Shown here: positions 1,151-26,499 of the stretch, one piece after another
Layout: every line of letters starts with the position of its first letter
How positions within the stretch are numbered: the stretch's first letter is position 1
Virus record (IMG/VR): IMGVR_UViG_3300030107_003216
Span: 62,001 to 92,582 of that record
DNA from: an uncultured virus (IMG/VR IMGVR_UViG_3300030107_003216)
Taxonomy: Duplodnaviria; Heunggongvirae; Uroviricota; Caudoviricetes
Length of the DNA: 30,582 nt
Strand: one strand, 5' to 3'
Program-made: the position numbers and the translations under genes
Notes under the pieces: model-generated
What the model saw: only the letters and a program-made list of their open reading frames with translations
Database searches by the model: none
Told to the model about the DNA's origin: nothing

Positions 1151-1404
1151 TCTTCTTCGCCTCCTTTAATAATCTCATATCGAAAACCTCCCCATGCACC
1201 CTTATCTTTGACCTTAATCCAATTAGGTTTATACTCTTCAGCAAACCAACGCTTACCTGTGATTGTTCCGTATGGTGTCTTAACAGGTTGTGTAGTACTA
1301 TTGAGTCGAGCCTTCTTACCTTGCGTTTTCAACATCTCAACATCTTGTTCAGCGAACTCTTTAGTTTCCCATTCACTGTATGCTCTCATCCAACAGCCAC
1401 TCAT
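1147..1404 (-). CDS. Hypothetical protein
   Basis: ORF with ATGA overlaps on both sides. Confidence 0.65.
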   Translation of the reverse strand: MSGCWMRAYSEWETKEFAEQDVEMLKTQGKKARLNSTTQPVKTPYGTITGKRWFAEEYKPNWIKVKDKGAWGGFRYEIIKGGEEE

Positions 1405-1934
1405 TCCTCTTCATCTCCCCATTCTTGTACTCTTTCTGGTTCAAAGTCACGATAAATTTGTAATTGTTTTGGGTTTGTATTCTCCCAAAATCCATAATGA
1501 CCTACTCCGCCTAAAACAAAAGCAGTTTCCATTAATGGTTCCCAAATACTAACTGTTCTAATATCTGTTCCACTAAAATACGCACTGCCAAATGGATGAG
1601 TATGAATCCATGTCTTAATAGGTAATTTCATACCAACAGGGTCAATCTTGAAATCAACATAACCCGAAGTACCGGATGAAATAAATATCTTATCTTCTGA
1701 ATCAATAACAACTTGTACCTCTAATTTAGGTAGTATTTCTGTGGAAGCATGCCAAATACCTATCATTAATTCATCATTATGCCATGCGTCATTCTCATAT
1801 CCATTTCTAATGAAATATTCTGCTTCTGCTCTTGCTATTTCTAAATCTGCAAGGTATTTATCATACCCATCATCACCATTTCTTTTTTCTTCTTCTCTCA
1901 TAGCCCAATCACTGCTCTTGCTCATTATCGTCAC
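1401..1934 (-). CDS. JAB/JAMM (MPN+) metalloprotease, Ubl-processing or deubiquitinase-like; true start probably ATG 1925
   Basis: JAMM motif E..(LEVQV)...WIHTHPFGSAYFSGTD, i.e. HxHx7SxxD. Confidence 0.9.
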   Translation of the reverse strand: MTIMSKSSDWAMREEEKRNGDDGYDKYLADLEIARAEAEYFIRNGYENDAWHNDELMIGIWHASTEILPKLEVQVVIDSEDKIFISSGTSGYVDFKIDPVGMKLPIKTWIHTHPFGSAYFSGTDIRTVSIWEPLMETAFVLGGVGHYGFWENTNPKQLQIYRDFEPERVQEWGDEEE

Positions 1935-2580
1935 CTCTTAAATTTTTGAGTACCGATTGAGTTAGTTTCTCAATCTTTGCTTGTAGTTTGCGTATTTTAC
2001 TCACTTTACGCTTGACTCTCCACGATTCTTCAGTTAATGCGGCCAAGTGTAACTTCTTGACTCTAATCGTGTCTGTGGCCTTCATAACCTGCATAATATG
2101 TTCGGGTTCTGTGCTATCAACAAGGTATTCTAAACGACTTGCGATTTGCCCGTAACTTCGACCATATCGTGCTTTTGCTTCATCTATGCTTAATTCATAG
2201 AAATGGATTAACAAATCCAAATCCTTTTCAGAATCCCAAAAATCATCTGAATTAGATAAAGGCGTTACAAATACTGATTCGTTATTTGCCATGTATTCAC
2301 CTATTTCTTTTGCAAATTGCTCATAGGATGAAAAAGTACCTGTTGGGAAATCTTCTTCAATGCCAAGATAATGAGCAGTTTCTTCTTGAACCTCCACACT
2401 ATTACCAATTTCAGCGATTTCTTCAATTATTCGCTTATCTATTTTCTTAACTCTGTTTTTACATGCTGGAATGCTTCTCTGTAATTCTCTTGAAATGTCC
2501 TCCCAAGATACTTCATCATTCACATATTCCAACAATTGTGTTTCTTCTTCTTTACTCCATCTGCATGTCTTGTAATTCAT
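1909..2580 (-). CDS. Myb/SANT-like HTH repeat protein
   Basis: RWSKEEETQLL...SWEDISRELQRSIPACKNR and a second repeat FWDSEKDLDLL...YGRSYGQIASRL. Confidence 0.75.
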   Translation of the reverse strand: MNYKTCRWSKEEETQLLEYVNDEVSWEDISRELQRSIPACKNRVKKIDKRIIEEIAEIGNSVEVQEETAHYLGIEEDFPTGTFSSYEQFAKEIGEYMANNESVFVTPLSNSDDFWDSEKDLDLLIHFYELSIDEAKARYGRSYGQIASRLEYLVDSTEPEHIMQVMKATDTIRVKKLHLAALTEESWRVKRKVSKIRKLQAKIEKLTQSVLKNLRGDDNEQEQ

Positions 2581-2793
2581 TTACGCCACCATCTCTTCAT
2601 TTGTTTCTTGTTTGAATTCCCAATTATGGAAATACTCATGTCTGGCCAGAAACCCGCCAGCCTCATTCATTGGGCCAATATATTCTGCTGAACATATCGA
2701 ACACCAAACGGCTACTATTTTCTCATTCCAAATACAACCGTTCTTATCCTCATATTCGAGAATTTCTCCCACATTGTCTAAACTAAATTTCAT
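2581..2793 (-). CDS. C2H2-type Zn-finger microprotein
   Basis: CSIC...HEYFH; coupled to neighbouring genes. Confidence 0.7.
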   Translation of the reverse strand: MKFSLDNVGEILEYEDKNGCIWNEKIVAVWCSICSAEYIGPMNEAGGFLARHEYFHNWEFKQETNEEMVA

Positions 2794-3347
2794 GCGTTCA
2801 TCACCATGTATTCTTTTACATCTTCGCCATTAAACCATCTTTGCACCCATTGTGCGCCAATTCCTGCAATAGCGATTTGCATAAATTGTACTCCTTTATT
2901 TGTTCCATCCCAAGAATCTCCTTGACAAGAGAATGAACCGGATGGGCCAGCCAATAAGGTATCATACATCTTAGGGTCTGCTTTATGTGACACAAGCGCA
3001 GCATTTCTGCCTTGCGCTCTCAAATCGAGCCATTTAAGACTTGTGTTATACAAGGTCTTTCTGATGCCTAAATTATCCACACAACAGATAATCAAATCAT
3101 ATCCTTTCATTTGTTGTTCACTAAGAATAGGAAATCGGTGCGTGTTTAATACGCTATCATATCTTGCAATAGCATCCACTTTCTTTTTAGATATTTCTGA
3201 CTTTGTGAAGTTCTGATATGGTATATTCTTTGCTTCAACAATGTCGGGGTCTGCTACTGTGATAGCATACATATCCACCTTATCTAAGAATTGAATCAAG
3301 AATGACCCAATTCCGCCTGTTCCTATAACTAATACTGTTCTTTTCAT
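2790..3347 (-). CDS. ThiF/E1-like ubiquitin-like protein activating enzyme (minimal adenylation domain)
   Basis: VLVIGTGGIGS, ADPDIVEAKNIPYQNF, KKKV, DLIICCVDN..IR; candidate catalytic Cys in SFSCQ. Confidence 0.92.
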   Translation of the reverse strand: MKRTVLVIGTGGIGSFLIQFLDKVDMYAITVADPDIVEAKNIPYQNFTKSEISKKKVDAIARYDSVLNTHRFPILSEQQMKGYDLIICCVDNLGIRKTLYNTSLKWLDLRAQGRNAALVSHKADPKMYDTLLAGPSGSFSCQGDSWDGTNKGVQFMQIAIAGIGAQWVQRWFNGEDVKEYMVMNA

Positions 3348-8521: not shown

Positions 8522-8737
8522 CTAACAAGAACCTCCAACAACAGCAGGGGTTAGGTCGACATTTTGTACCGTGTCCCAATTAATGTTGGCAATATCTTCT
8601 CTCGCAACCATTTCACCATCAATGAAGCACCAATGGGTCGGGTGTGAGTCAATCTGTTCGATGATTGAGTTGGACTCAAGCATCAATTCTGTGTGGCCTG
8701 TTTCGTTTAGAATTCTAATTTTAATCATAGTTTCCAT
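8522..8737 (-). CDS. Ubiquitin-like (beta-grasp, SAMP/ThiS/MoaD-like) protein with C-terminal GG plus a 2-aa extension
   Basis: 71 aa; IKIRI start, FIDGEMV, VDLTPAVVGG-SC end. Confidence 0.85.
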   Translation of the reverse strand: METMIKIRILNETGHTELMLESNSIIEQIDSHPTHWCFIDGEMVAREDIANINWDTVQNVDLTPAVVGGSC

Positions 8738-12498: not shown

Positions 12499-13929
12499 TC
12501 AGTTAATCTGCGGTTTAGGGCCGCAATAGAATAAGTTTTTCTTTGCTCTTGTAATTGCTACATAGCAAATGTTGTTTTCTTCGCTACCGCCCTTTGGATG
12601 AGGCATTCTTTCAGTAGCAAGAATATAGACATTATCTGCTTCAAGACCCTTAGCCTTGTGAACAGTGGAAAGCATAATCTCTCCTTCGTCATTGTTATCG
12701 AATACTCTTTTAATTTCAGAGATAATTCCACCAACGGTGGTAGCCTTGTCTGTGAAGATAGCGATACATTCTTTCTTATCTTCAAGAGCAAGTGCTTGAT
12801 TAACCTTATCTTGGCTAATCAACTTAGCATGGTTGAATTCAAAGTCAGCCATAAATAACTGCCAGAATTCTTCTGTACCCATGTGGTTGTTGCTTGTAAT
12901 CTTCTTAACTGCATTAACTAATCCAGCCGTCATATCACGGCCAAGAATATATGCTGATTTACCTTGACTAATCAAATCGTAAAATGCACTAACTAATGGT
13001 GCATTATATCGGCACAATACCATATCGTTTCGTAGTGGTGTAAATGCCGCACGAACAATTACATTTCCTTCGGGTGCATCCTCATGTGCATGATAATCTG
13101 CAACATATCGGTTTGCTTCAGAAACAACCGATTTAGGACAACGCCATGTAGTAGTTAGTGGGAAATGGCTTATTTCTCTTGAACCATTTCTAAGACGCTT
13201 CTCAAACATACCAATTGAGTTTGAATCAGCCCCACGGAATCCGTAAATTGCTTGGTTTTTATCACCGACAATAATACATCGGCCACCATTTACACATCTT
13301 GAAATCAATTCTCTTTGGACTTCATTGAAATCCTGTGCTTCATCAACGAACATAATATCGTAGTGTGGCAAAGGATAGTTATTTACAATTGGCATCCAAA
13401 CCATATCATCAAAATCAATCATATGAGTTTGAGTTTGGCACATCTGAAGAATGGTTGGCATTATTTGAATTGCCTGTTGTTCTTCTCTTTCTGATTGAAA
13501 CTGAATATTGTATTCATCAATCAAACCACGAATTGCAGTTACATTGTTTCCTTCAACCATAGCACCTTTTACAAGTGATACTAACTTCTTTAGTGGTGTA
13601 ACATAATAGTCAGCACCTAATACTTCTTTAATGATGTTATTTACCTTGTAATTATTTACTTTAGTTCTAATACCAGCATTTCTAATTGCTGCAAATCCAA
13701 ACGCATGGAAAGTCTTTGCTTCAACATTTTCTGGCAGTTTCTTTGCTAATTCAGTTGCAATAGATTTGTTAAATGCCAAGAAAGCACAATCCTTGTCTTG
13801 TACTCTATTTGCACCTTCAACAATTGTAAAGGTCTTGCCTGTTCCTGCACCAGCATTAACAAACACATGACCCTCTGTGTTCTGTATAGCGTTCCAAATC
13901 GCTTCTTGTTCTTTTGTTCCTTTTATCAT
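12499..13929 (-). CDS. SF1A UvrD/Rep-family DNA helicase
   Basis: AGAGTGKT, VDEAQD, VGDKNQAIYGFRGA, WRCP, STVHKAKGLE, YVAITRAK. Confidence 0.95.
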   Translation of the reverse strand: MIKGTKEQEAIWNAIQNTEGHVFVNAGAGTGKTFTIVEGANRVQDKDCAFLAFNKSIATELAKKLPENVEAKTFHAFGFAAIRNAGIRTKVNNYKVNNIIKEVLGADYYVTPLKKLVSLVKGAMVEGNNVTAIRGLIDEYNIQFQSEREEQQAIQIMPTILQMCQTQTHMIDFDDMVWMPIVNNYPLPHYDIMFVDEAQDFNEVQRELISRCVNGGRCIIVGDKNQAIYGFRGADSNSIGMFEKRLRNGSREISHFPLTTTWRCPKSVVSEANRYVADYHAHEDAPEGNVIVRAAFTPLRNDMVLCRYNAPLVSAFYDLISQGKSAYILGRDMTAGLVNAVKKITSNNHMGTEEFWQLFMADFEFNHAKLISQDKVNQALALEDKKECIAIFTDKATTVGGIISEIKRVFDNNDEGEIMLSTVHKAKGLEADNVYILATERMPHPKGGSEENNICYVAITRAKKNLFYCGPKPQIN

Positions 13930-14019
13930 TTTTATTCCTCCTTATTGTTATTTATAGGGAATGTGAAAAGTCCGATTTTCTCAGACGGTGAAATTGTGTA
14001 AAAATTTACACTGTGAATG

Positions 14020-14181
14020 TGGCGGGCTATGCAGGATTTGAACCTGCGACCAACGGATGTCTTTTGGGGAAATAACTGTGTAAAGATAAAAAAACACATT
14101 ACCGAAAGGAGGTGATATGTTATTATTACTCGGCAAACCCCATTAAAAGCCCGTTGCGCTACCTGACTGCGCCAATAGCCC
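14020..14181 (-). tRNA. tRNA-Lys(UUU) with an 85-nt BHB intron at position 37/38 (14059-14143) and encoded CCA
   Basis: Acceptor GGGCTAT/ATAGCCC-G-CCA, D stem GCGC/GCGC, anticodon stem ACGGG/TCCGT, T arm GCAGG-TTCAAAT-CCTGC. Canonical BHB: CTTT/AAAG helix with TAA and ACA bulges, outer helix TGGGG/CCCCA. Confidence 0.93.
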
Positions 14182-14186
14182 AAGGA

Positions 14187-14412
14187 TAGGTTTAGGGAGA
14201 ACTGTAAATTATGTCTAATTTACTTAACTTCGTTAGTTGCGCCTGTTCTGCAACCTAAACCTAAAATGAGAAGCATTGTTTGTTGTTGGTGGAATTGCTC
14301 ACGCATTCCCGCTTACTCAATCTATCCCCCCCGTACAGTATAGGTTCGCCGGTCACCCCTGCCTCGACTTCATAATCCATATGAAAAGAAATCCTAAACA
14401 ATTCACCAACAA
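14187..14412. ncRNA. Two closed stem-loop domains, putative small structured RNAs
   Basis: Inverted repeats 14187-14196/14254-14263 (perfect 10 bp, with inner hairpins) and 14283-14297/14399-14412; no ORF. Confidence 0.45.
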
Positions 14413-14438: not shown

Positions 14439-14481
14439 AAAGAAAGAAAGCCTCCCATTTCCCCGAAGAGAGATGGGAGGC
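14439..14481 (-). terminator. Hairpin plus pyrimidine tract downstream of the 14541 gene
   Basis: GCCTCCCAT/ATGGGAGGC stem followed on the minus strand by TTTCTTTCTTT. Confidence 0.6.
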
Positions 14482-14540
14482 AAATTCACCGACGATTTTA
14501 TCTCACTGTCATCGGTGTACGCATGAAAAAGTTGATACTA

Positions 14541-15029
14541 TCATTCTTCTTCATCAGATGGTGTTAGGCTTTCCAAAAGGCCATCCCAAGCACCTGTCGA
14601 ATACAACTTTTGCAGTTTTGCTCGCTCTCGCTTCATAACTACATTTGCATATTCTTCTGCATTTTCATACTGTCCTCCACCGGACTTAGTGTGCTTTAGA
14701 GTAATTACACTCATAATTGGGTGGTGGTTGTAGTAATTAGTTGCGGCTTCTGTAACCAATCCACAAATCTTGTCAATTGATACTCTAACTGCGGCTGGCA
14801 CATTTGATTTTGTTCCTCTTCTGCCGAAAGGTGAACCTTCTCTGCCTTTTAGGATAGCCTTTAGTGCTTTTTCACAAGGTTCTCTCTCTTCAGCATTTGC
14901 GGTTCCAATCTGCAAATTTAATTCAACGATTTGTCGTACACCTGCCGGTAGTGCGTCAGTTGCGACATACTCGTTGACCTCTGCAACCAATCCATTCCAT
15001 GTTTCTTCATCCATATTTTTCATCTCCAT
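14541..15029 (-). CDS. Hypothetical protein, paralogue family member 1 (start taken at MEMKNM)
   Basis: Shares RRG..S..P, H.[KR]SGG..Y and WDG with 16671-17195; the longer ORF start would overlap the promoter. Confidence 0.75.
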   Translation of the reverse strand: MEMKNMDEETWNGLVAEVNEYVATDALPAGVRQIVELNLQIGTANAEEREPCEKALKAILKGREGSPFGRRGTKSNVPAAVRVSIDKICGLVTEAATNYYNHHPIMSVITLKHTKSGGGQYENAEEYANVVMKRERAKLQKLYSTGAWDGLLESLTPSDEEE

Positions 15030-15068
15030 TTTTACGGGCCTCTCTCGGCCAAAATAGCACCACTCCGG

Positions 15069-15087
15069 CCCTATATTAAGGAGGACA
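15069..15087 (-). promoter_or_regulatory. Putative TATA-type promoter, copy 2, at the head of the left arm
   Basis: 19-bp identity with 8762-8780. Confidence 0.7.
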
Positions 15088-15199
15088 ATTACCAAAATTT
15101 TGCTTATTTTCTAATCGCTATGCGGGTGAGTATTTTTCCATTTTTTCACTAAATCAAACAAACAAGTTAATCCATTTTCGCCCATGTTAAGGTCAATGA

Positions 15200-16670: not shown

Positions 16671-17195
16671 TCATTCCTCTTCGTCGCCCTCCGTAGCGTC
16701 TGTGGTTGCCTCTTTAACAGGAGGTGGAGTCATCAATGGCACATTACCATCCATGGAACCATCCCAACGGGAACCGTTCTTATCTTTGTGTGCGTTAAGA
16801 AGCGCACGATAAGCCTTGTTACCCATCTCTTCTGCAAGGTCGTTAATAGTTGCATAAGCACCGCCAGAGCGACCATGCGGCAAGATAACCTTCAGAATTA
16901 CATCAGCATCAGTAAGTGCAGCAAAGGCACTGATAACTGTGTTCTTCACAGAAGTCGCATTTAGCAGAACTTCGTCTGGAAGGTCTGATTCTCGGCCTCT
17001 GCGGGCTGATGGGAAATCTGAGTATTTCTTACCAAGGTTTCTAATTGCACCCCAATAAGTATCTCTCTCATCGTCGTTTTCTGCGTCGTTTCCAAGCATG
17101 ATTGATAATTCAATCGCTGGATTGACGGGGCGAGCCTCTTTCTCAAGCCACAGTGTAACTTGAGCCGTGTTCATATTCCAATTCTCTATCTTCAT
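16671..17195 (-). CDS. Hypothetical protein, paralogue family member 2
   Basis: GGTGA Shine-Dalgarno; ERDTYWGAIRNLGKKYSDFP; acidic tail. Confidence 0.8.
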   Translation of the reverse strand: MKIENWNMNTAQVTLWLEKEARPVNPAIELSIMLGNDAENDDERDTYWGAIRNLGKKYSDFPSARRGRESDLPDEVLLNATSVKNTVISAFAALTDADVILKVILPHGRSGGAYATINDLAEEMGNKAYRALLNAHKDKNGSRWDGSMDGNVPLMTPPPVKEATTDATEGDEEE

Positions 17196-17377: not shown

Positions 17378-18043
17378 ATGAAGTTGGATAACTACAATGA
17401 GAAGGTTGAACTCATCGAGCCGTGGTTGCTCAAGAAAAAGGAGGTTGTTGAAGCCGAACTTCAGCAATTTGACCCTAATTCTGATGACTACGACGAAAAG
17501 GCACACGAAGCCGTCAAAAAGCAGAAAAAACTGCTTGGTGGCGTTGAAATGAGCCTTGCGATGTGTGAATACCTTGATGATAGCCCCGAAGATACGAAAG
17601 AACGCGCTACTTATTGGAATACAATGAGAATTAGCGGCTCTAAGTTTTCTGATTGGCCTATTGAGAGCAAGAACACCGGCAGTAACCTAACCACTGAGCA
17701 AAAGGTCGTCGCAAACCACCAAAAACCGCTTGTAGCGGGCATTTTCAAGGAAGTGCTTGCTATTGACGGCGCAGAAATGGTTCTAAGACGCCTTATCACG
17801 CCAAGTGCGAGAAAAGGTGGCTGGTTCCCTCTTGGTTCTCTTGAGGATGAGATGAATAAGTTACACGATAAGGTCGTGAAGGTTGCACTAACCGACAAAC
17901 TCGACCGTATTTCACTCAAAGTGGAAGAAGATGTACTTAACAACATCAAAATGCCGCCTCTAAAGCCTAAAATCGAGCGAAAGCCGAAAAAGAAGGCCGA
18001 AGAAGCACCAAAAGCACCGGAATCGGCTGAAGAAGAGGAATAA
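17378..18043 (+). CDS. Hypothetical protein, paralogue family member 3
   Basis: ERATYWNTMRISGSKFSDWP aligns with member 2; acidic tail. Confidence 0.8.
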   Translation: MKLDNYNEKVELIEPWLLKKKEVVEAELQQFDPNSDDYDEKAHEAVKKQKKLLGGVEMSLAMCEYLDDSPEDTKERATYWNTMRISGSKFSDWPIESKNTGSNLTTEQKVVANHQKPLVAGIFKEVLAIDGAEMVLRRLITPSARKGGWFPLGSLEDEMNKLHDKVVKVALTDKLDRISLKVEEDVLNNIKMPPLKPKIERKPKKKAEEAPKAPESAEEEE

Positions 18044-18810: not shown

Positions 18811-18887
18811 TGAAGATATTAATGTGTGTTAAGTGTGATAATTCTGTGGGGTTCTGTGTATCATTTGGATGCGTGGAACCCCCACTA
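18807..18887 (+). CDS. Cys-rich micropeptide (26 aa)
   Basis: MMKILMCVKCDNSVGFCVSFGCVEPH; ATGA overlap with the previous gene. Confidence 0.4.
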
Positions 18888-18904
18888 ATGGGGCAAGTAA
18901 ATTA

Positions 18905-18934
18905 CAAAGCAACCATATGGTTGTAATAACTTTG
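18905..18934. repeat. Palindromic element 4 (inverted relative to the others)
   Basis: Reverse complement reads CAAAG-ttattaca-ACCATATGGT-tg-CTTTG. Confidence 0.85.
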
Positions 18935-18959
18935 GATAATGAAATGTTACAACCCTATA

Positions 18960-19500
18960 CCTGCGGCCACAGTATTTAGTGCTGGAAGTAATTAATCCGG
19001 CAGACATTGACCGAATGCACCTTTGATAGCGGTGTAAGGTAAATTGTTTCGTGTGGTGCGACATCACCCATTTACAAGGCGTAATCTTGCGTGGAGTAAG
19101 TGGTAGCGATGAAAGTCCTTGAACCTCAAAAGGGGAGTCAATTAACTGTTGGCTTGGATAACAATTGTATGCGGGCTTTCTGAACAATAGAAAGTTATCA
19201 AAGTCAGTGCGAGCCAATCGCATCCGTATTAGTGAGTAGCCAATCTCCTATGTCACCCCTTTAGGGTTTGCCAATAATAAGGTTGAAGTTACATACATGG
19301 CGTAGTGATGTAATTAAATTGATTCCTTTCCCACCCATTATATTCCTATGGCGATTAGTGGCCATAAAACCATAGTGGAACAAACCGGAAACAATGCGTT
19401 GTAAGACCGATATGAATGTAGTAGCACTTTTGAGCCATGGTGACAAAGTGTGAAACACAGGGCCGTAATACGGAGTTTGGAGTACGGGGAGTTCCATTAG
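18960..19500. ncRNA. Putative structured non-coding RNA(s)
   Basis: No credible ORF, raised GC and many short hairpins, bounded by elements 4 and 5. Confidence 0.4.
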
Positions 19501-19517
19501 GGTTCGTTTCACTGTTA

Positions 19518-19546
19518 CAAAGATAAAACCATATGGTGTGGCTTTG
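19518..19546. repeat. Palindromic element 5
   Basis: CAAAG-ataaa-ACCATATGGT-gtgg-CTTTG. Confidence 0.85.
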
Positions 19547-19680
19547 CCAATAAAATGAACTCCCTATTGGGCCACCCACTGCAATAGATTCAGTAATCCC
19601 CTTCCTAAGAGGTTTCCAAATTACCTATTACCCGTATCAAACTCTATGAACAGGATTCTATTACAGTGGGTGGTGGAACA

Positions 19681-19926
19681 TCAGTCTTTAGGCTTCCAGC
19701 CCTTCTTCCAAACCGGCAAGTGAGGATAGGGCTTAGAGCCAAGTATTCTAATAGCAGTCCAATATATGTCTTTATTATATTCCATTTCATCTTCTTCAGT
19801 TTTGAAGTATAAAACGCATGAAAAACGCATAGCAGTAATAACAGCGCATTTATCGTCTTGCTCATCTATCCAATTCAATATCCAATGGACTCTTTCATCT
19901 CTTCTTTGTGTCATTTTAATCACCAT
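19681..19926 (-). CDS. Hypothetical protein (start possibly MTQRR)
   Basis: ORF immediately downstream of 19920-20249. Confidence 0.6.
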   Translation of the reverse strand: MVIKMTQRRDERVHWILNWIDEQDDKCAVITAMRFSCVLYFKTEEDEMEYNKDIYWTAIRILGSKPYPHLPVWKKGWKPKD

Positions 19927-20672: not shown

Positions 20673-20814
20673 ATAAAACCACATAATTAAATGATATGAT
20701 TTTTATTCTGGGAATATAAATGAGAAAAATTAAAACCGGGCGCAAGTGCCAAAAAAATTCCGCCACATTTTTTGAGAGATTTTACTTATGAACAAATAAC
20801 AGGAATTGATTATT

Positions 20815-21096
20815 ATGACATGGAAAGACAGAATTAAGAAACAACAACTTAATGAAACTTTGTTGAATAGAAATCTCCTAAAAATACAAGAAGATATGGA
20901 AAATAAATTGATGAAAGATTCATCCACTATTTATGAGTTTCTTTTAGAGAAGGTTTTTTCTAATGATAGAGATAATAAAACATATAGAGAATTAGAAGAT
21001 ATGACAGAAAATCTTAGATTTGATACGCTGAATTTATTAGAGAAAAAAATGAAAGAATACATTTCAGAATTAGTGGATATAATTGAGAGTGATTAA
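20815..21096 (+). CDS. N-terminal-tag protein (MTWKDRIKK)
   Basis: Shared N-terminal motif; start reassigned to the motif ATG. Confidence 0.75.
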   Translation: MTWKDRIKKQQLNETLLNRNLLKIQEDMENKLMKDSSTIYEFLLEKVFSNDRDNKTYRELEDMTENLRFDTLNLLEKKMKEYISELVDIIESD

Positions 21097-21097
21097 T

Positions 21098-21397
21098 ATG
21101 ACATGGAAAGATATACTAAAAGAAATTTATCCTAAAGGAGAAGAACCGAGAGGGTATAAAAGAAGTCAAGAATTAAAAAGAATGGCCTATAAAATTATGA
21201 AAGATAGGTATGGGGAAAAGGAGTTTAGATTAACAAGCCCAAGAAAGCATAGTCCAAAAATGAGAGGGGAATACGAGCATTTAATTGAATTATTGAGAGG
21301 CGGTATGTCGCCTGATATGGCGGCTAAACAACCCTATGTTCCTAAACCACGCACAACTAAAGAGGAAGATGATGCAGGAGAAGGATGGGAAAGGTGA
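21098..21397 (+). CDS. N-terminal-tag protein (MTWKDILKE)
   Basis: Shared motif; GAGTGA Shine-Dalgarno. Confidence 0.75.
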   Translation: MTWKDILKEIYPKGEEPRGYKRSQELKRMAYKIMKDRYGEKEFRLTSPRKHSPKMRGEYEHLIELLRGGMSPDMAAKQPYVPKPRTTKEEDDAGEGWER

Positions 21398-21402
21398 TTA
21401 AT

Positions 21403-21597
21403 ATGACATGGAAAGATATAATTAAACAAGACGAGCAAAGCAGAATAGAAAGATTTAGAAGCCATTTAGAAAAGAACCCTTTTTTGAAAACAAAACATGG
21501 GGCAGAAGCAGAAGCACTTATTCCTCAATTACAACAAGCAATAGGAACTCCCCAATTTGAACAATTGGCTTCTTCTATTACTTGGTATAAGATTTGA
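21403..21597 (+). CDS. N-terminal-tag protein (MTWKDIIKQ)
   Basis: Shared motif; AGGTGA Shine-Dalgarno. Confidence 0.75.
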   Translation: MTWKDIIKQDEQSRIERFRSHLEKNPFLKTKHGAEAEALIPQLQQAIGTPQFEQLASSITWYKI

Positions 21598-21607
21598 TGT
21601 GATTGAT

Positions 21608-21904
21608 ATGACTTGGAAAGATGGTATTAGAAAGAATGAAAGCGAAATAGAAAACATGCTAACTGACTTAAAGGATAAACTTAGAGATGCTTTATCCTAT
21701 AAACCAGAAGAGGTAAAGAACGAACAAGGGCAGTTTATACGAGAAGAGGTTGAGCCGGTGCTTGAAGCATTTAGAGAGGCTAAAGAAGCAATAAGGTATT
21801 TAACTGAAGAATTAGCAGAATATGGTGAAACATTAGGCGTATGGGATGGTTCCTATGGTTATGATTATTTGCCATCAGGTGATTTTACTAATGAAGATGA
21901 TTAA
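21608..21904 (+). CDS. N-terminal-tag protein (MTWKDGIRK)
   Basis: Shared motif. Confidence 0.75.
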   Translation: MTWKDGIRKNESEIENMLTDLKDKLRDALSYKPEEVKNEQGQFIREEVEPVLEAFREAKEAIRYLTEELAEYGETLGVWDGSYGYDYLPSGDFTNEDD

Positions 21905-21905
21905 T

Positions 21906-22127
21906 ATGACATGGAAAGATGACATTAAAAAAGATGATTTCGGGGTTGGGCCAATTACTACTTTGAATAATCTTTTTGAGGCAATCCGAATAGCCCTAAT
22001 AACTAATAAAATGGTTATGAACTCTAAAACTTCTGAAATAAGCGAACAAGATAAAGGGCTTCTTACAAGCAGTAGCCGCTCTTTAGATAAAGCACAAAAA
22101 CAAATTGAGAGAATGATGAGGCGATAA
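21906..22127 (+). CDS. N-terminal-tag protein (MTWKDDIKK)
   Basis: Shared motif. Confidence 0.75.
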   Translation: MTWKDDIKKDDFGVGPITTLNNLFEAIRIALITNKMVMNSKTSEISEQDKGLLTSSSRSLDKAQKQIERMMRR

Positions 22128-22128
22128 T

Positions 22129-22389
22129 ATGACATGGAAAAAACTACTAAAACAAAGAAGCGATTTCAAATGGACTGTTCGTGAAAAATTAGATGATTTA
22201 ATAGAGGAACTTGCTAAAACAGAAGAAGCAAAAGAAGAAGCAGCGAGTATTTCTGATATAGACAGACTGCTGATGCCGGAAATATCTATTATTAGTAACC
22301 TAATGAAGTATATTGAAGAATTAGATAGAGATAAGTTTAATCTTTATCCTTCAATAGACCAACCTAACCCTGAAGAATATGTTGAGTGA
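22129..22389 (+). CDS. N-terminal-tag protein (MTWKKLLKQ)
   Basis: Shared motif. Confidence 0.75.
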   Translation: MTWKKLLKQRSDFKWTVREKLDDLIEELAKTEEAKEEAASISDIDRLLMPEISIISNLMKYIEELDRDKFNLYPSIDQPNPEEYVE

Positions 22390-22394
22390 TTACT

Positions 22395-22502
22395 ATGACT
22401 CGATGCACATTACTTGATACTTGGTTTGATGCTAAATCTAAAGAATTAGATAAGGCAGAAAAAGAGAAGAAGAAAGATTTGATTACAGGTGAAAAGAAAT
22501 GA
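22395..22502 (+). CDS. Small hypothetical protein (35 aa)
   Basis: Manual translation MTRCTLLDTWFDAKSKELDK...; ATGA overlap with the next gene. Confidence 0.55.
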   Translation: MTRCTLLDTWFDAKSKELDKAEKEKKKDLITGEKK

Positions 22503-22873
22503 CATGGCAAAATGTAATTAAAAATGAACCGACTATTTTAATTGAAGGTCTAAAAAATATATTAGATGAAGCACTTGATGAAATATCTGATGAAGAAGGT
22601 GCAGTATATCAAGGAAATAAAAGAATAAAACATAATGGTGGTTCTATTAGAATTACGCTTCATGTTGAATCAACCCCTCCTAATCAAATGGCAAGAGTAT
22701 CTTTTACAGGTAAAACAGGAATTGACTTTGATTACCAAATTTATAAATTAACAGAAGAAGGTAAAAAATGGGAAGGCGGTTTTGTTGGAGATAGTAATGA
22801 ATCTATAAGTGAAGAAATACAAAGAAAGATTTTATCCGTTGCAGATAAAATGCCAATATATCAATATTATTAG
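22499..22873 (+). CDS. N-terminal-tag protein (MTWQNVIKN)
   Basis: Shared motif; AGGTGA Shine-Dalgarno. Confidence 0.75.
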   Translation: MTWQNVIKNEPTILIEGLKNILDEALDEISDEEGAVYQGNKRIKHNGGSIRITLHVESTPPNQMARVSFTGKTGIDFDYQIYKLTEEGKKWEGGFVGDSNESISEEIQRKILSVADKMPIYQYY

Positions 22874-22883
22874 GTGAAAAGAA

Positions 22884-23261
22884 ATGACTTGGCAAGATAT
22901 ATTGAAGGTTGATAATATATATGATACCTCAGACCCTTTATATGATTCTGAGGCAGAAGAAAGAATTAGAGAATTAGGACAATATTTTGATGAAGATATT
23001 GATAGGCAGGAATTAGAAAAGCATTTAGAAATTGAGTATAATGTCGGAAGATTTACTGAAATTAGTGATAGAGATTTCAAAAAAGAAATGAAGAAGTTAA
23101 TGGATGATGCCCCTAATTCTCATCACATGGATTATAGGATTTTTATAGATATTGAAATGAATGATTGGTTTCAATGGCTTGCAGGAGAAATAGATTTATA
23201 TTTCCCAATTAAAAACGCATATAAAGAAATGGTCGAAGATATAAGAGGAAATACATTTTGA
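22884..23261 (+). CDS. N-terminal-tag protein (MTWQDILKV), acidic
   Basis: Shared motif; AGGTGA Shine-Dalgarno. Confidence 0.75.
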   Translation: MTWQDILKVDNIYDTSDPLYDSEAEERIRELGQYFDEDIDRQELEKHLEIEYNVGRFTEISDRDFKKEMKKLMDDAPNSHHMDYRIFIDIEMNDWFQWLAGEIDLYFPIKNAYKEMVEDIRGNTF

Positions 23262-23271
23262 GGTGAGAAAT

Positions 23272-23607
23272 ATGTCTTGGCGAGATATTATCAAAGCGTT
23301 TCCCGATGTAATCCATGATAAAAACGGCGAAGTATTTCACTTTGTTGGCAGACAAGGTAACTTAGGTAAATATTCTAACGGTGAAAAAGAAGTCCTATTC
23401 GATGAAAAGAAGGCTAAACTCAATGCGCCATCTAAAGGATTAACTATGGATGATGATGTCAAATTTCAAATAGAGGATGATACTAAAGGCACATCTTTTC
23501 AAGAATTCAAAGAGGCTATGGCTGTCGCAGTAACTACTACTTCTTCGCCAGCACTGTTTAATACTACATATAACCAGCGAAAAAAGAAAAAGGAGGATGA
23601 GGAATGA
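23272..23607 (+). CDS. N-terminal-tag protein (MSWRDIIKA)
   Basis: Shared motif; GAGGTGA Shine-Dalgarno. Confidence 0.75.
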   Translation: MSWRDIIKAFPDVIHDKNGEVFHFVGRQGNLGKYSNGEKEVLFDEKKAKLNAPSKGLTMDDDVKFQIEDDTKGTSFQEFKEAMAVAVTTTSSPALFNTTYNQRKKKKEDEE

Positions 23608-25055
23608 GTAAAAAGAAAAAGACAAGTACCACCAAGAAAAATCAGAAAGAATGGAAAGGTATGAAAATTACTCAAAACACTTCAAAGTCTGAATTTATTC
23701 AAGACTACCTTGCTTGGAAAAGAGCATGTACCGGAATCAAAAGTGGAAAAATGATGGTTCAAGGTATTCCAACATTGTATGATTTTTTGGTTGAGCATGT
23801 TACTTCGACTTCAATGAGAACAGGTAGCAGAAACCGAGGCCATGTGAATTCGGGTGCAAATAAATACATCAAGTTACTTGACAATCTATTAGAGAGAAAA
23901 TTCTATACTGTTGGTGATGAAATGATTATCAAAAATTTAGGAGATGCTTTAATGGCTCTGAAAGGTACAGGAAAAGATACTGAAGAATCACCTGCATTAG
24001 ACCCCGGTTTTATTCTATTTACTGAAAGTAAAAGAGGTCGAAGAGGACAAAAGTTAGCACCTAAGATTGTTCAAGGACATTATCGAACAGAAGCCTATGC
24101 TAAGAAAAACAAAACTTCTGCCGCACCCGACCATTGGTTCACAGGTACTAATTTACCACACAAGGCTTTGTTTAACGAAAGTGCTGATGATGAATTTAAG
24201 TCAAGAGGATTAGCAGTAATTATGCAAGATGTAAAAGGAAAACTTGCAGACATTACAAATGAAGTTGATGATATTCCTATTCCCGAAGATGATAATATCC
24301 AAGAATATGAGGCTCTTGGTGACATTGAACAATTCTTTGACAAGGTTGTTAGAAATGTAGGATTTTGGAGTAAAGATGGTCGTCTATTAGTTGGGCCTCT
24401 CAAGAGAGAATTTGAAAACACTCAATTCAAATTAGGTATTCAAGACCAAGATGTAATTAGAGAGTTTCCAAGATTAAAGCAAAAAGATGCACCCGCAGGT
24501 AAAATTACATCAGTTACATTTGAGGCTTCACCACTAACATTAGTGACTTTAGTTGATAGAGCATTGATACGACAACAGCCATCTGGCCGTAATGGTCGAA
24601 GTGCGCCTAATGATGAATTTGCTTGGCAGAATGCAATTAGAACAGGATTCGATTATAGAATAGCCGGAGAAGAAGAATTAGTGTTCCCTGTAAATAGTGT
24701 TAGAATAGCAAAAGAATTAGCAAAGATACCGGAGATTAAACGATTTGCTCAAGGTCTTTTGAGAAAGACTAACTTATACAATGGGCCTAATTTCCAAACT
24801 TCTAATGCGGCTAAACTCTTAGCAGAAAAGAAATTTAATTATTCTCCTACTTCTCAACAAGCAATTCTTAATTTGTTTAGAAAAGAAAAAGCACAACCTA
24901 AATCTATTCAGTTAAAATTAACTAAGAATGCTATGAAGGCTCTTTTGAATCAATCTGTAATTACTCGAACAAGAGATTTGCAGAGTATGAATGCGCCTAA
25001 CACTGATGAGAAAATTGTTTTGAAAGGAATGTGGCAAAGCCTTCTATGGGGTTGA
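23604..25055 (+). CDS. Hypothetical protein (483 aa)
   Basis: Long ORF with GGAGG Shine-Dalgarno; no recognised motif. Confidence 0.8.
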   Translation: MSKKKKTSTTKKNQKEWKGMKITQNTSKSEFIQDYLAWKRACTGIKSGKMMVQGIPTLYDFLVEHVTSTSMRTGSRNRGHVNSGANKYIKLLDNLLERKFYTVGDEMIIKNLGDALMALKGTGKDTEESPALDPGFILFTESKRGRRGQKLAPKIVQGHYRTEAYAKKNKTSAAPDHWFTGTNLPHKALFNESADDEFKSRGLAVIMQDVKGKLADITNEVDDIPIPEDDNIQEYEALGDIEQFFDKVVRNVGFWSKDGRLLVGPLKREFENTQFKLGIQDQDVIREFPRLKQKDAPAGKITSVTFEASPLTLVTLVDRALIRQQPSGRNGRSAPNDEFAWQNAIRTGFDYRIAGEEELVFPVNSVRIAKELAKIPEIKRFAQGLLRKTNLYNGPNFQTSNAAKLLAEKKFNYSPTSQQAILNLFRKEKAQPKSIQLKLTKNAMKALLNQSVITRTRDLQSMNAPNTDEKIVLKGMWQSLLWG

Positions 25056-25059
25056 TTTA

Positions 25060-25725
25060 ATGGCAGTCAATAGAAAGCGTTGCGGTTTGTGTCAAGCAGA
25101 CAATAGGCAAGAATTAGAGGATGCTCTTGAAAACGGTACTATGACTTGTGATGAAATAGATGCGGCTAATGGTTGGAGAAGCGGAACTGCGGCCCAACAT
25201 CAAAGAAATCATATGGGGGATTATGTTATGTCGGCTAATCCTAAATGTGTTTTATGCACAGACCCAATGAGAAAACATTACGAACAGGCATTGAGTAATG
25301 GAGAGATAGACAGTGAAGCGGTGGCTTTGGCATTAGATACTACAAAAGCACAAATTCAACGACATATGAAACACCACTTAACTCCAATCGTGCAGCAATC
25401 CGCAGCCGCCATAATTGCTAAGAAGGAGGTAAATGAAATTGATTTACTTTCTAACAATGTTGAGAAATTAGATGCGAGATTAGAGCAAGTGTTTAATGAA
25501 TTAGGAAATGACTTAGACCCTAAGATGATTGATGCTCTAACTAAGTTAGCAAGAGAAATTAGAGAGTCACTAAAGTATCTAATGGAATTCAAAGGCAAAC
25601 TTATTCATAAGCGACAAGATACTGTTATTGTTGCACAAATGCAAATTGTTCAAGAAGTGTTAGCACAGAATAATCCTGATATTTGGTTAGATATTAAGAA
25701 AAGAATGCAGGAGAAATTACAATGA
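25060..25725 (+). CDS. Tandem Zn-finger/HTH DNA-binding protein with coiled coil; possible terminase small subunit
   Basis: Two repeats of CxxC...AL.NG...HxxxH followed by an amphipathic helical domain. Confidence 0.6.
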   Translation: MAVNRKRCGLCQADNRQELEDALENGTMTCDEIDAANGWRSGTAAQHQRNHMGDYVMSANPKCVLCTDPMRKHYEQALSNGEIDSEAVALALDTTKAQIQRHMKHHLTPIVQQSAAAIIAKKEVNEIDLLSNNVEKLDARLEQVFNELGNDLDPKMIDALTKLAREIRESLKYLMEFKGKLIHKRQDTVIVAQMQIVQEVLAQNNPDIWLDIKKRMQEKLQ

Positions 25726-25850
25726 GTTGGGAAGATATAATCAAAATGAGTTTTACAGAACAGTTGATTAGACAAGCATATTCAAAAAAGACCAAAGAGG
25801 AATTAATAGATAAAATAGTTGAATTATTAACAGGAGGGGATGAAGAATGA
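25722..25850 (+). CDS. N-terminal-tag microprotein (MSWEDIIKM, 42 aa)
   Basis: Manual translation; ATGA overlaps on both sides. Confidence 0.7.
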   Translation: MSWEDIIKMSFTEQLIRQAYSKKTKEELIDKIVELLTGGDEE

Positions 25851-26170
25851 GTTGGAAAGAGATATTAAAATCGTATGAATTAAGTGAAGCGATTAAAGAC
25901 TTCATTTATAACACAGAAATAAAACCTAATATGTATGAGTTTTTACCAGAAGCAAATGATTCTGTTAGGGATTTTAAGAACAATGACCCTAAAGGATTTG
26001 AATTATATCTTAATGATATTTTTGATTACATTACTTCTAAAGTATCAAAGGAAGAATTAACTGAATTTTATAGAGAAATGTATTATGATGATGAAAAAGA
26101 TGAAGAACCGTATAACCCTCGTAAAATTCAAAAGATAATATATGAGGCTATGAATGCAAGAAAGCCATAG
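25847..26170 (+). CDS. N-terminal-tag protein (MSWKEILKS)
   Basis: Shared motif. Confidence 0.75.
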   Translation: MSWKEILKSYELSEAIKDFIYNTEIKPNMYEFLPEANDSVRDFKNNDPKGFELYLNDIFDYITSKVSKEELTEFYREMYYDDEKDEEPYNPRKIQKIIYEAMNARKP

Positions 26171-26181
26171 GAGAAATTACA

Positions 26182-26499
26182 ATGAGTTGGCAAGATATTC
26201 TTCACAAGAAAGGTAAAGCCCGAAGAAAGGCTGGCTCTAAAAAAGCAAAGAAAAAATTAGGCAAGCCCCGAAAAGGAAAAAGATTTGTTAAAAGAACAAA
26301 GTCTGGCAGAAAGGTTTCATACGGTCAATCGGGTAAAGCCAAAGATGGTGGCGATAGAATAAGGCCCGGAACTTCTAAGGGAGATGCTTATTGTGCAAGG
26401 TCAAATAAAATCAAAGGCGATTGGAGAAGTGACCCGAATAGCCCGAATAATCTAAGCCGTAAAAAATGGAAATGCCACGGAAATAAATCAAGAAGGTGA
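26182..26499 (+). CDS. N-terminal-tag, highly basic protein (DUF6321-like)
   Basis: MSWQDILHK; KVSYGQ...AYCARS...DPNSPNNLSRKKWKC. Confidence 0.75.
   Translation: MSWQDILHKKGKARRKAGSKKAKKKLGKPRKGKRFVKRTKSGRKVSYGQSGKAKDGGDRIRPGTSKGDAYCARSNKIKGDWRSDPNSPNNLSRKKWKCHGNKSRR

Follow-up and report, generated by a model that had tools for sequence, protein, structure and literature searches.

A predicted pseudoknot RNA module inside the tRNA-Lys intron of a putative magrovirus and outside tRNAs in related viruses

An uncultured virus with the gene content of a magrovirus carries a tRNA-Lys(UUU) gene split by a bulge-helix-bulge (BHB) intron, and the 85 nt of this intron are one copy of an RNA module that is predicted to form a pseudoknot. 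The conserved entity is the fold, which occurs outside tRNAs too, and we regard the reality of both the intron and the RNA family as close to certain. We tentatively propose that the intron is a module copy that the host would splice out as a likely stable RNA, and that this RNA is likely a decoy for a protein binding the same module in the leaders of viral mRNAs.

The DNA analysed (30,582 nt, the window) is the final third of a 92,582-nt virus record. Pfam searches identified TFIIB-like, ThiF, JAB, class II RNR and UvrD genes within the window, and the rest of the record encodes a split PolB, two ATP-dependent ligases, and portal, protease and capsid proteins. The record also includes a Cpn60-family chaperonin, whose genome matches are bacterial, and the nearest named relatives of its capsid are haloarchaeal viruses. 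The split PolB, GroEL-type chaperonin, two ligases, RNR and halovirus-like capsid are those used as criteria for group B magroviruses (PMC5434244), an assignment made by gene content and not by phylogeny. Because these traits match, the host is predicted to belong to the Poseidoniales. Elsewhere in the window, at 1401-3347 and 8522-8737 (-), the JAB-domain and ThiF/E1-like genes and a 71-aa ORF ending in GGSC could form a ubiquitin-like conjugation set, the role of this ORF being a reading of its sequence and not a database match. Many ORFs at 20806-26499 (+) start with M-T/S-W-x-x-I-x-K.

The tRNA-Lys(UUU) gene, which includes CCA, spans 14020-14181 on the minus strand. Rfam RF00005 matches it at 14023-14181 (-) with 53.1 bits and a long insertion in the anticodon loop, and tRNA was the sole family matched in the window by Rfam 15 at the gathering score. 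ARAGORN reported it as tRNA-Lys i(39,85), found only with introns allowed, and the joined exons fold into a tRNA-like structure. The 5' exon (14144-14181, -) ends in the anticodon UUU and A37, and its C32-U35 (14149-14146) form one strand of the BHB central helix; the 3' exon (14020-14058, -), delimited by Rfam and by reading of the exons, runs from A38 to CCA. The intron is exactly 14059-14143 (-), with exon ends at 14144 and 14058. Around it, a strict BHB is formed, in this order, by G31-U39, the AC|A bulge, the CUUU/AAAG helix, the UA|A bulge and the UGGGG/CCCCA helix, with the 5' bulge UA|A at 14145-14143 and the 3' half, in which AAAG pairs with the exon CUUU and the bulge is AC|A, at 14059-14064 (-).

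Canonical archaeal BHB introns are protein-spliced elements at position 37/38 with a 4-bp helix between two 3-nt bulges (PMC4090602), and the viral intron shares this position in a complete tRNA, this bulge-helix-bulge and the flanking helices. Structurally, the element thus belongs with the canonical BHB introns. The BHB test was true for this copy and for six of the seven intron types described below; in the type found in L138, P1 was mis-picked by the script and the motif is visible by eye. An earlier sequence-only reading of this DNA had called the intron excisable, and that claim held, as the BHB at 14059-14143 is canonical and perfect and the host machinery should excise it. Excised archaeal tRNA introns are able to circularise (PMC3326292). 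Unlike usual archaeal introns, which have a median length of 12-25 nt (PMC4090602), the viral intron is 85 nt long and encloses a conserved fold that is found apart from tRNAs as well, and its carrier is a virus whose presumed hosts lack an intron in tRNA-Lys. In 3/3 genomes the host tRNA-Lys(UUU) has no intron; the host tRNAs for Met and Tyr do carry introns. Parts of the region are present in five marine RNA runs, from two studies, as contigs in which missing coverage is not evidence; no spliced or circular form appeared among them. One contig from a close strain covers 13625-14167 including the unspliced intron, with no joint; in such assembled RNA-seq contigs small and circular RNAs are invisible, and DNA is a possible source.

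The mature tRNA-Lys likely serves AAA decoding in this AT-rich virus, or would stand in for a host tRNA that a defence nuclease has cleaved. By rough ORF counts, AAA:AAG is 1162:651 in the virus and 574:554 in a host sample. Phage T5's tRNA-Lys evades PARIS (PMC11464382). Like it, the magrovirus tRNA-Lys is virus-encoded and has an anticodon stem unlike that of the host, so that an anti-defence role may be suggested by analogy; the magrovirus gene bears an intron, which the available text of PMC11464382 does not mention for T5.

Several other structured elements surround the gene. A long leader hairpin (14187-14263, -; -22 kcal/mol, z -2.66) ends just 5' of the tRNA, and similar leader hairpins precede the tRNA in intron types A-D. 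It belongs to a second recurrent hairpin module, built of an outer stem rich in purines, a small bulge, an inner stem, a large loop and an apical hairpin, which lies directly before the tRNA or the pseudoknot module (14187-14263 (-), L620, L621, L629, L571, L575, L580, L584 and the leaders of types B-D). After the upstream ORF, at 14445-14482 (-), a GC-rich hairpin followed by U-rich bases resembles a bacterial intrinsic terminator and is conserved in types A-D. Three all-helical, likely paralogous proteins without a family, which are common in related viruses, are encoded at 14541-15095, 16671-17195 and 17378-18043, and such proteins are often encoded just upstream of RNA modules. In L577, L578, L581, L592 and L593, a structured, possibly pseudoknotted leader lies about 100 nt 5' of tRNA-Arg(UCU) and ends 2-4 nt before the tRNA. 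Downstream of the tRNA-Lys is the UvrD-like helicase gene (12499-13929, -; Pfam), and a standalone copy of the pseudoknot module lies directly before this gene at three loci from relatives (L620, L621, L629).

Within the intron, at 37/38 of the tRNA, the module (covariance model R1, 58.8 bits for this copy, which is in the training set) is closed by P1, in which UGGGG (14138-14142, -) pairs with CCCCA (14065-14069) and which is at once the closing stem and the BHB outer helix. P1 covaries among introns (UGAGG/CCUCA, UGACG/CGUCA, UGGCA/UGCCA). It is followed by UUU (14135-14137, -), the predicted Hoogsteen strand of U-A-U triples, which appears as the invariant T7 T8 T9 in aligned introns; T8 and T9 are invariant across 29 members of the family. 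A helix search identified S1, pairing UUGCCG (14131-14136, -) with CGGUAA (14099-14104), and S2, pairing AAUAAC (14119-14124, -) with GUUAUU (14071-14076) and crossing S1. The linker L1 between the two 5' strands, AGUAAU (14125-14130, -), is the most conserved motif of the family, with RRUAA after S1 in 47/50 copies, and S2 begins with AA in 43/50. L2 (14105-14118, -) is a hypervariable loop, about 8 to 49 nt long in most copies and able to be a hairpin. P4, a hairpin closed by UGUGU/ACACA (14077-14098, -), is also variable and is missing in a minimal copy, L459. Conservation is concentrated in the stems, in the UUU and RRUAA motifs and in the A-U pairs that open S2, and not in L2 or P4. A longer stem, UUGCCGAG/UUCGGUAA, is present as the second-best helix (14129-14136 with 14099-14106), but its two innermost pairs are not conserved; a change at 14105 in strains L092, L096 and L128 and in RNA contig X1 breaks its inner A-U pair, and the real S1 stem is therefore UUGCCG/CGGUAA. 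S1 and S2 are predicted to form simultaneously, as a pseudoknot, and U-A-U triples stacked on P1 with the A-rich linker would give a compact core that leaves the peripheral loops free.

Pattern scans of related viruses recovered seven divergent intron types, all in viral tRNA-Lys(UUU): type A in the window, L092, L096 and L128; type B in L082, L109, L110 and L115; type C in L079, L080, L091 and L104; type D in L083 and L084; and types E, F and G in L095, L138 and L147, respectively. The viral tRNA-Lys is intronless in L152, L164, L180, L184 and L660. The interiors diverge strongly, yet each type folds P1, S1 after UUU, a crossing S2 and the hairpin P4. In order, S1 is UUGCCG/CGGUAA, GAUAG/UUAUC, AUCGA/UCGAU, ACCA/UGGU, UUCCA/UGGAA, UUGUUU/AAACAA and UGUCC/GGACG, and S2 is AAUAAC/GUUAUU, AAACAAAC/GUUUGUUU, AAAUGAG/CUCAUUU, AAACGAG/CUCGUUU, AACGGU/GCCGUU, AAAGAAAAA/UUUUUCUUU and GGGAAU/AUUCCC. 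The sister types C and D differ in S2 by a compensatory change (AAAUGAG/CUCAUUU versus AAACGAG/CUCGUUU), and the viruses with types A and B are the closest pair by their helicases (82%). Under one fixed rule, whose limits were picked after the sequences had been seen, S1, S2 and P4 together exceed dinucleotide shuffles of the interior in 7/7 types (0, 1, 1, 2, 0, 0 and 0 of 150). Homologue searches had a high background, with four real tRNAs among 78 matches in one search and 10 among 45 in another. In a search of 1/64 of a sequence collection, the best 80 of 121 matches included bacterial tRNAs only, and no such intron was found in phage records. A leaderless peptide from the intron AUG was considered and rejected, because its reading frames vary from 5 aa in types A, B and G to 8 aa in C and open frames in D, E and F.

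Most copies of the module have no tRNA around them. Loci of related viruses were gathered by means of two conserved proteins (80 and 66 loci, in overlapping sets). A descriptor of the fold gave 35 distinct matches in 2.82 Mb and six in block-shuffled DNA, counts that are not independent because the members are related and the descriptor limits, too, were set after the introns had been seen; one doubtful match (G009 33545) was excluded. Four of the 35 matches are introns and the others lie outside tRNAs. For an alignment, 29 members were chosen from the descriptor matches and intron types; 80.5% of cells are paired, compared with 65.1 +/- 1.3 in shuffles (0/500 as high) and 46-54% in slid controls. 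Two-sided changes occur in 15/17 pairs and in all four helices, and two columns are invariant. Because of register errors, a separate alignment of the introns alone, built with a model, was left out of the counts. Model R1 added further copies, including standalone ones in L164 and L184, whose tRNA-Lys is intronless, and two genomes (G007 and G008) carry both an intron copy and a standalone copy.

The resulting count set comprises 50 copies, seven intron types and 43 standalone copies, from which near-duplicates were partly removed by eye. There are one to three divergent copies per locus, and the contexts include introns, leaders, tandem copies and copies without a near downstream ORF. BHB flanks are present in 1/43 standalone copies. 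Thirty-five of the 43 lie at most 40 nt from a Shine-Dalgarno (SD)-led ORF, just upstream of it, and this ORF encodes either the helicase or one of several unrelated small proteins. Rfam has no match for the module, and a search across two standalone copies in L546 returned no significant hit. Three magrovirus texts (10.1101/101196, PMC11706807, PMC5628999) mention no tRNA intron in their available parts, no mention of the element was found by term in the available part of 10.64898/2026.10.21.760802, and no published description was found otherwise; supplements and subscription papers could hold one. The RNA family is without an Rfam entry and apparently undescribed. A reduced tandem variant, with a closing stem, UUU, an A-rich strand, a long S2 and a U-rich strand, often without P4, lies ahead of many standalone copies, about 60-120 nt 5' of the module, in L616, L622, L624, L629, L548, L549, L641, L602, L597 and L599.

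The window itself holds a weak second copy, at 19260-19335 (+), in a long noncoding stretch (R1 19.5 bits; E 0.03 in its own genome and 0.16 in a separate search), with P1, S1 GCC/GGC, L1 AAUAAU and S2 AAGG/CCUU. The region 18850-19700, a candidate large viral noncoding RNA, is long, rich in GC and apparently structured, and has neither convincing ORFs nor an Rfam match. An RNA contig with a depth of 1,450 matches around 19199-19345, and in it 24 other bases replace 103 that include the module. This hints that a relative has an abundant noncoding RNA without the module at this site, the matched sides being short (26 nt). Among 101 host genomes the module was found in one, as a clear copy in a Poseidoniales genome bin (L663:1501-1577, G050) within a 39% GC stretch of short ORFs of unknown function. 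This copy is probably viral and may come from a provirus or from a virus binned together with the host.

The sequence-only reading had centred on L2, and its claims survive in part. The RNA that it quoted is, as stated, the exact complement of 14105-14120, where the plus strand reads AAAGGAGGTGATATGT. Its likeness to the 16S rRNA tail is also borne out for this copy. The Poseidoniales tail is GGAUCACCUCCU in 61/61 loci with a tail found, among 115 probe loci, and 10 nt of L2, AUCACCUCCU at 14107-14116, are identical to it by sequence comparison; since base-shuffling the intron 100,000 times gave such identity in only 12 cases, it exceeds chance, although most module copies are without it. The supposed simple hairpin loop has to be redrawn: the stem exists and encloses a long loop, but the 5' part of that loop, AAUAAC, in which the AC of ACAU as quoted is contained, pairs with the downstream GUUAUU in the predicted pseudoknot. 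In a pseudoknot-free minimum-energy fold the motif is largely buried in another helix. The proposed anti-start-codon part fell, since its SD-AUG gap of 1 nt puts it out of register and S2 pairs some of its bases. So did the alternative of an antisense 9-codon ORF with a perfect SD; MLLLLGKPH (14117-14146, +) exists, but its AUG follows GGTGA by 1 nt, a gap seen in 0/67 viral GGTGA starts, of which 61/67 have 4-6 nt.

Across homologous introns the loop motif is not conserved as the sequence-only reading would require, and it is missing in four of the seven types. The anti-SD is strong in two types and weak in one. In types A and B, ACAU(A/G)UCACCUC is retained despite divergent stems, and each of their loops favours viral translation-initiation regions over shuffled loops (0/60 shuffles as good, each). 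The E loop prefers initiation regions weakly (1/60, with G000 as a stand-in genome), for the loops of C, D and G it is absent (27/60, 52/60 and 43/60 shuffles doing as well), and that of F reflects composition only (20/60). Among the 50 copies, 13 share at least 5 nt of L2 with the 16S tail, compared with 4.0 expected (0/500 shuffles; 14/50 after re-parsing), and these 5-mers are mostly ACCUC in related copies.

Searches for targets of L2 returned little. In six viral records, two of them partial, the longest exact cognate match is 10-11 nt, and non-cognate genomes give up to 14 nt. Host scans used exact patterns for types A-D in 101-151 genomes of the Poseidoniales, the presumed host group. 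AGGAGGTGATATG occurs in 7/151 genomes (control 3), mostly at unrelated sites. The A/B consensus GRGGTGAYATGTT occurs at 18 places in 16/101 genomes (control 8), only two of them at a plausible start, in both cases that of one small gene. The complement of the C loop occurs at 56 places in 44/101 genomes, and 12 places inspected were coding DNA, mostly of different genes and on either strand, as were the D complements that were inspected; a C/D compromise pattern was found in 10/101, below its control. Pairing of L2 with the leader or trailer of its own tRNA (no better than non-cognate), with its own downstream SD (p 0.50) and with P1 as a switch strand (p 0.90, not above shuffled loops) was rejected. 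Beyond the tail, the longest matches to rRNA are 13 nt and 11 nt and are read as chance; the longer consists of 13 A/U-rich bases common to the type F intron (L138:1530-1620) and host 23S rRNA. The idea of a regulator pairing with SD and start regions thus keeps a non-random, exposed anti-SD in types A and B, and loses generality with the C, D, F and G loops, which lack a preference for initiation regions, and with the lack of targets in these scans. The anti-SD is thus genuine in this lineage, without being universal or linked to any target that the scans turned up. It is lineage-specific content of the free loop L2 and not the core function of the family.

A module bound by a protein is the simplest single account of these observations, although we would put its chances a little short of even. 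Host splicing would free the intron module, perhaps circularised, as a likely stable RNA. A protein would bind the module in viral mRNA leaders and act there as an operator or stabiliser, and the freed intron copy would likely titrate the same protein. In leaders, the pyrimidine-rich 3' strand of the module could, with an open core, mask the SD that follows. The computed unpaired probability of the SD is 0.21 with this strand free and 0.50 with it blocked, a gain partly built into the test design, as compared with 0.56 at other viral starts; in 9/35 leaders it is below 0.15 even with the core folded. The proximity to the SD may reflect genome compaction, because tight SD spacing also follows viral tRNAs. 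Control in cis is not the sole function, since the core is kept, with compensatory change, in introns that lie more than 100 nt from start codons and would be cut out. As for the putative partner, the paralogous family of 160-220 aa encoded upstream has no Pfam or PHROG match, and its best fold match is a helical bundle with Z 7.3; a structure model of the upstream 162-aa family (pLDDT 89.7) gave no informative fold match. A pure decoy accounts neither for the 10-nt anti-SD of the copy in this intron nor for the surplus of tail-like 5-mers across L2 loops.

There is precedent for such a decoy. Type III antitoxins are protein-binding pseudoknots with base triples and tandem copies, and a phage pseudo-ToxI mimics them as a decoy (PMC5086642). 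The module is likewise predicted to be pseudoknotted and has tandem copies, with protein binding, triples and a decoy role all putative. The ToxI family consists of near-identical repeats of 34-36 nt before a toxin gene (PMC5086642), whereas module copies are 50-115 nt long and divergent, and a Pfam-type scan of the window neighbours found no toxin family. The module showed the features neither of type III antitoxins nor of box C/D RNAs, HDV-like/theta ribozymes or riboswitches. By analogy, its mode of action may resemble that of a ToxI-type decoy or of an ENE.

The rival that survives best, which we nonetheless consider doubtful, gives the leading role to L2. The core would be a nuclease-resistant scaffold displaying L2 as an antisense guide, and the freed intron would pair with SDs or mimic the 16S tail and so dampen SD-led translation. 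The exact 10-nt tail copy, the conservation of the A/B loop although its stems diverge, the preference of the A, B and E loops for initiation regions and the tail identity of 13 loops all agree with it. It sits poorly with the 36/50 copies that have no tail identity, with loops of such varied length that are sometimes hairpins, with cognate viral matches that reach 11 nt at most and with host matches that mostly fall at unrelated or implausible sites; a general anti-SD would also strike the virus's own GAGG/GGTGA-led genes. Free yeast tRNA introns, the fitRNAs, lower complementary mRNAs (10.1101/2025.11.19.689297) and resemble the viral intron in that an excised intron is proposed to act through mRNA complementarity. 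Unlike fitRNAs, which match long stretches of ORFs according to the same available text, the module gave no target longer than 11 nt in these searches, and it is the fold and not the sequence that is conserved.

In ENE and MALAT1-type U-A-U triple helices, U-rich strands beside a stem clamp an A-rich strand. As a sequence pattern only, the module resembles these in that P1 is flanked on either side by U-rich strands and that a third strand is A-rich; unlike in the ENE, the A-rich strand is internal and not a 3' tail, and it is held by a second crossing stem. An RNA-only end protector of this ENE- or xrRNA-like kind might shield processed viral transcripts, with the intron copy a passenger kept for P1 and the BHB, a reading that we find slightly less credible again than the guide. 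The usual site just 5' of an SD and the other hairpin modules adjoining tRNAs in the same clusters would suit such a protector. An excised intron has no mRNA to shield, yet S1 and S2 compensate among sister types found only as introns, and for the BHB a plain hairpin would be enough.

A more ambitious combination of these ideas is unlikely, a shade more so than the end protector. It would make the module a programmable small-RNA class in which a triple-helix pseudoknot scaffold with an exchangeable loop is expressed from leaders, arrays and the tRNA, and in which one splicing event would yield both a defence-proof tRNA-Lys and a circular 16S-tail mimic that reprograms SD-led translation or soaks up a tail-recognising host factor.

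A new kind of small self-cleaving ribozyme, cutting polycistronic viral RNA before genes, is improbable. Theta and minimal HDV-like ribozymes sit beside phage tRNAs (PMC10879173), and the module recalls them in its small size, pseudoknot, tRNA link, variable loops, tandem copies and dispensable P4, as in L459. Unlike them, it lacks a conserved P3/L3 or second pseudoknot and a catalytic C in a J4/2-like linker, its L2 has no conserved stem or sequence in 50 copies, and it sits inside the tRNA or in leaders. Moreover, the junctions have no conserved candidate catalytic C or G, the linker before the second S2 strand is only 0-3 nt (A, AA, GA, GAA), Rfam gives no ribozyme match, and cutting within an intron lacks an evident use. 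Least probable of all is a riboswitch responding to a metabolite or ion, which would open the leader SD and in the tRNA control BHB formation, and so tRNA-Lys maturation, through P1; the double use of P1 and the SD-masking 3' strand would allow it, and it is opposed by the unrelated downstream genes (the helicase and several small ORF families), by the few invariant bases and by an L2 that pairs with its own P1a or downstream SD no better than controls.

If the protein-bound module with a spliced decoy copy is borne out, it would represent a second type of functional RNA nested in archaeal tRNA introns, and one on the virus side. The main known case is a box C/D sRNA that lies within the archaeal tRNA-Trp intron and that splicing sets free (PMC4090602, PMC3326292). 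The module shares with it the nesting of an RNA in a tRNA intron; unlike it, the module is viral and a pseudoknot rather than a K-turn RNP, and no complementarity of a methylation guide was found. The C box RUGAUGA and the D box CUGA are absent from the intron, and Rfam gives no C/D match at the locus. The findings would also suggest a route by which tRNA introns are gained, in which an existing RNA module is captured and its closing stem completes the BHB. The key steps are all testable in vitro, and culture of the host is unnecessary. An RNA family without an Rfam entry is present in viruses whose presumed hosts are among the most abundant marine archaea, and its one fold, occurring in an intron, in leaders and possibly in a large noncoding RNA, would offer a natural experiment that separates function in cis from function in trans.
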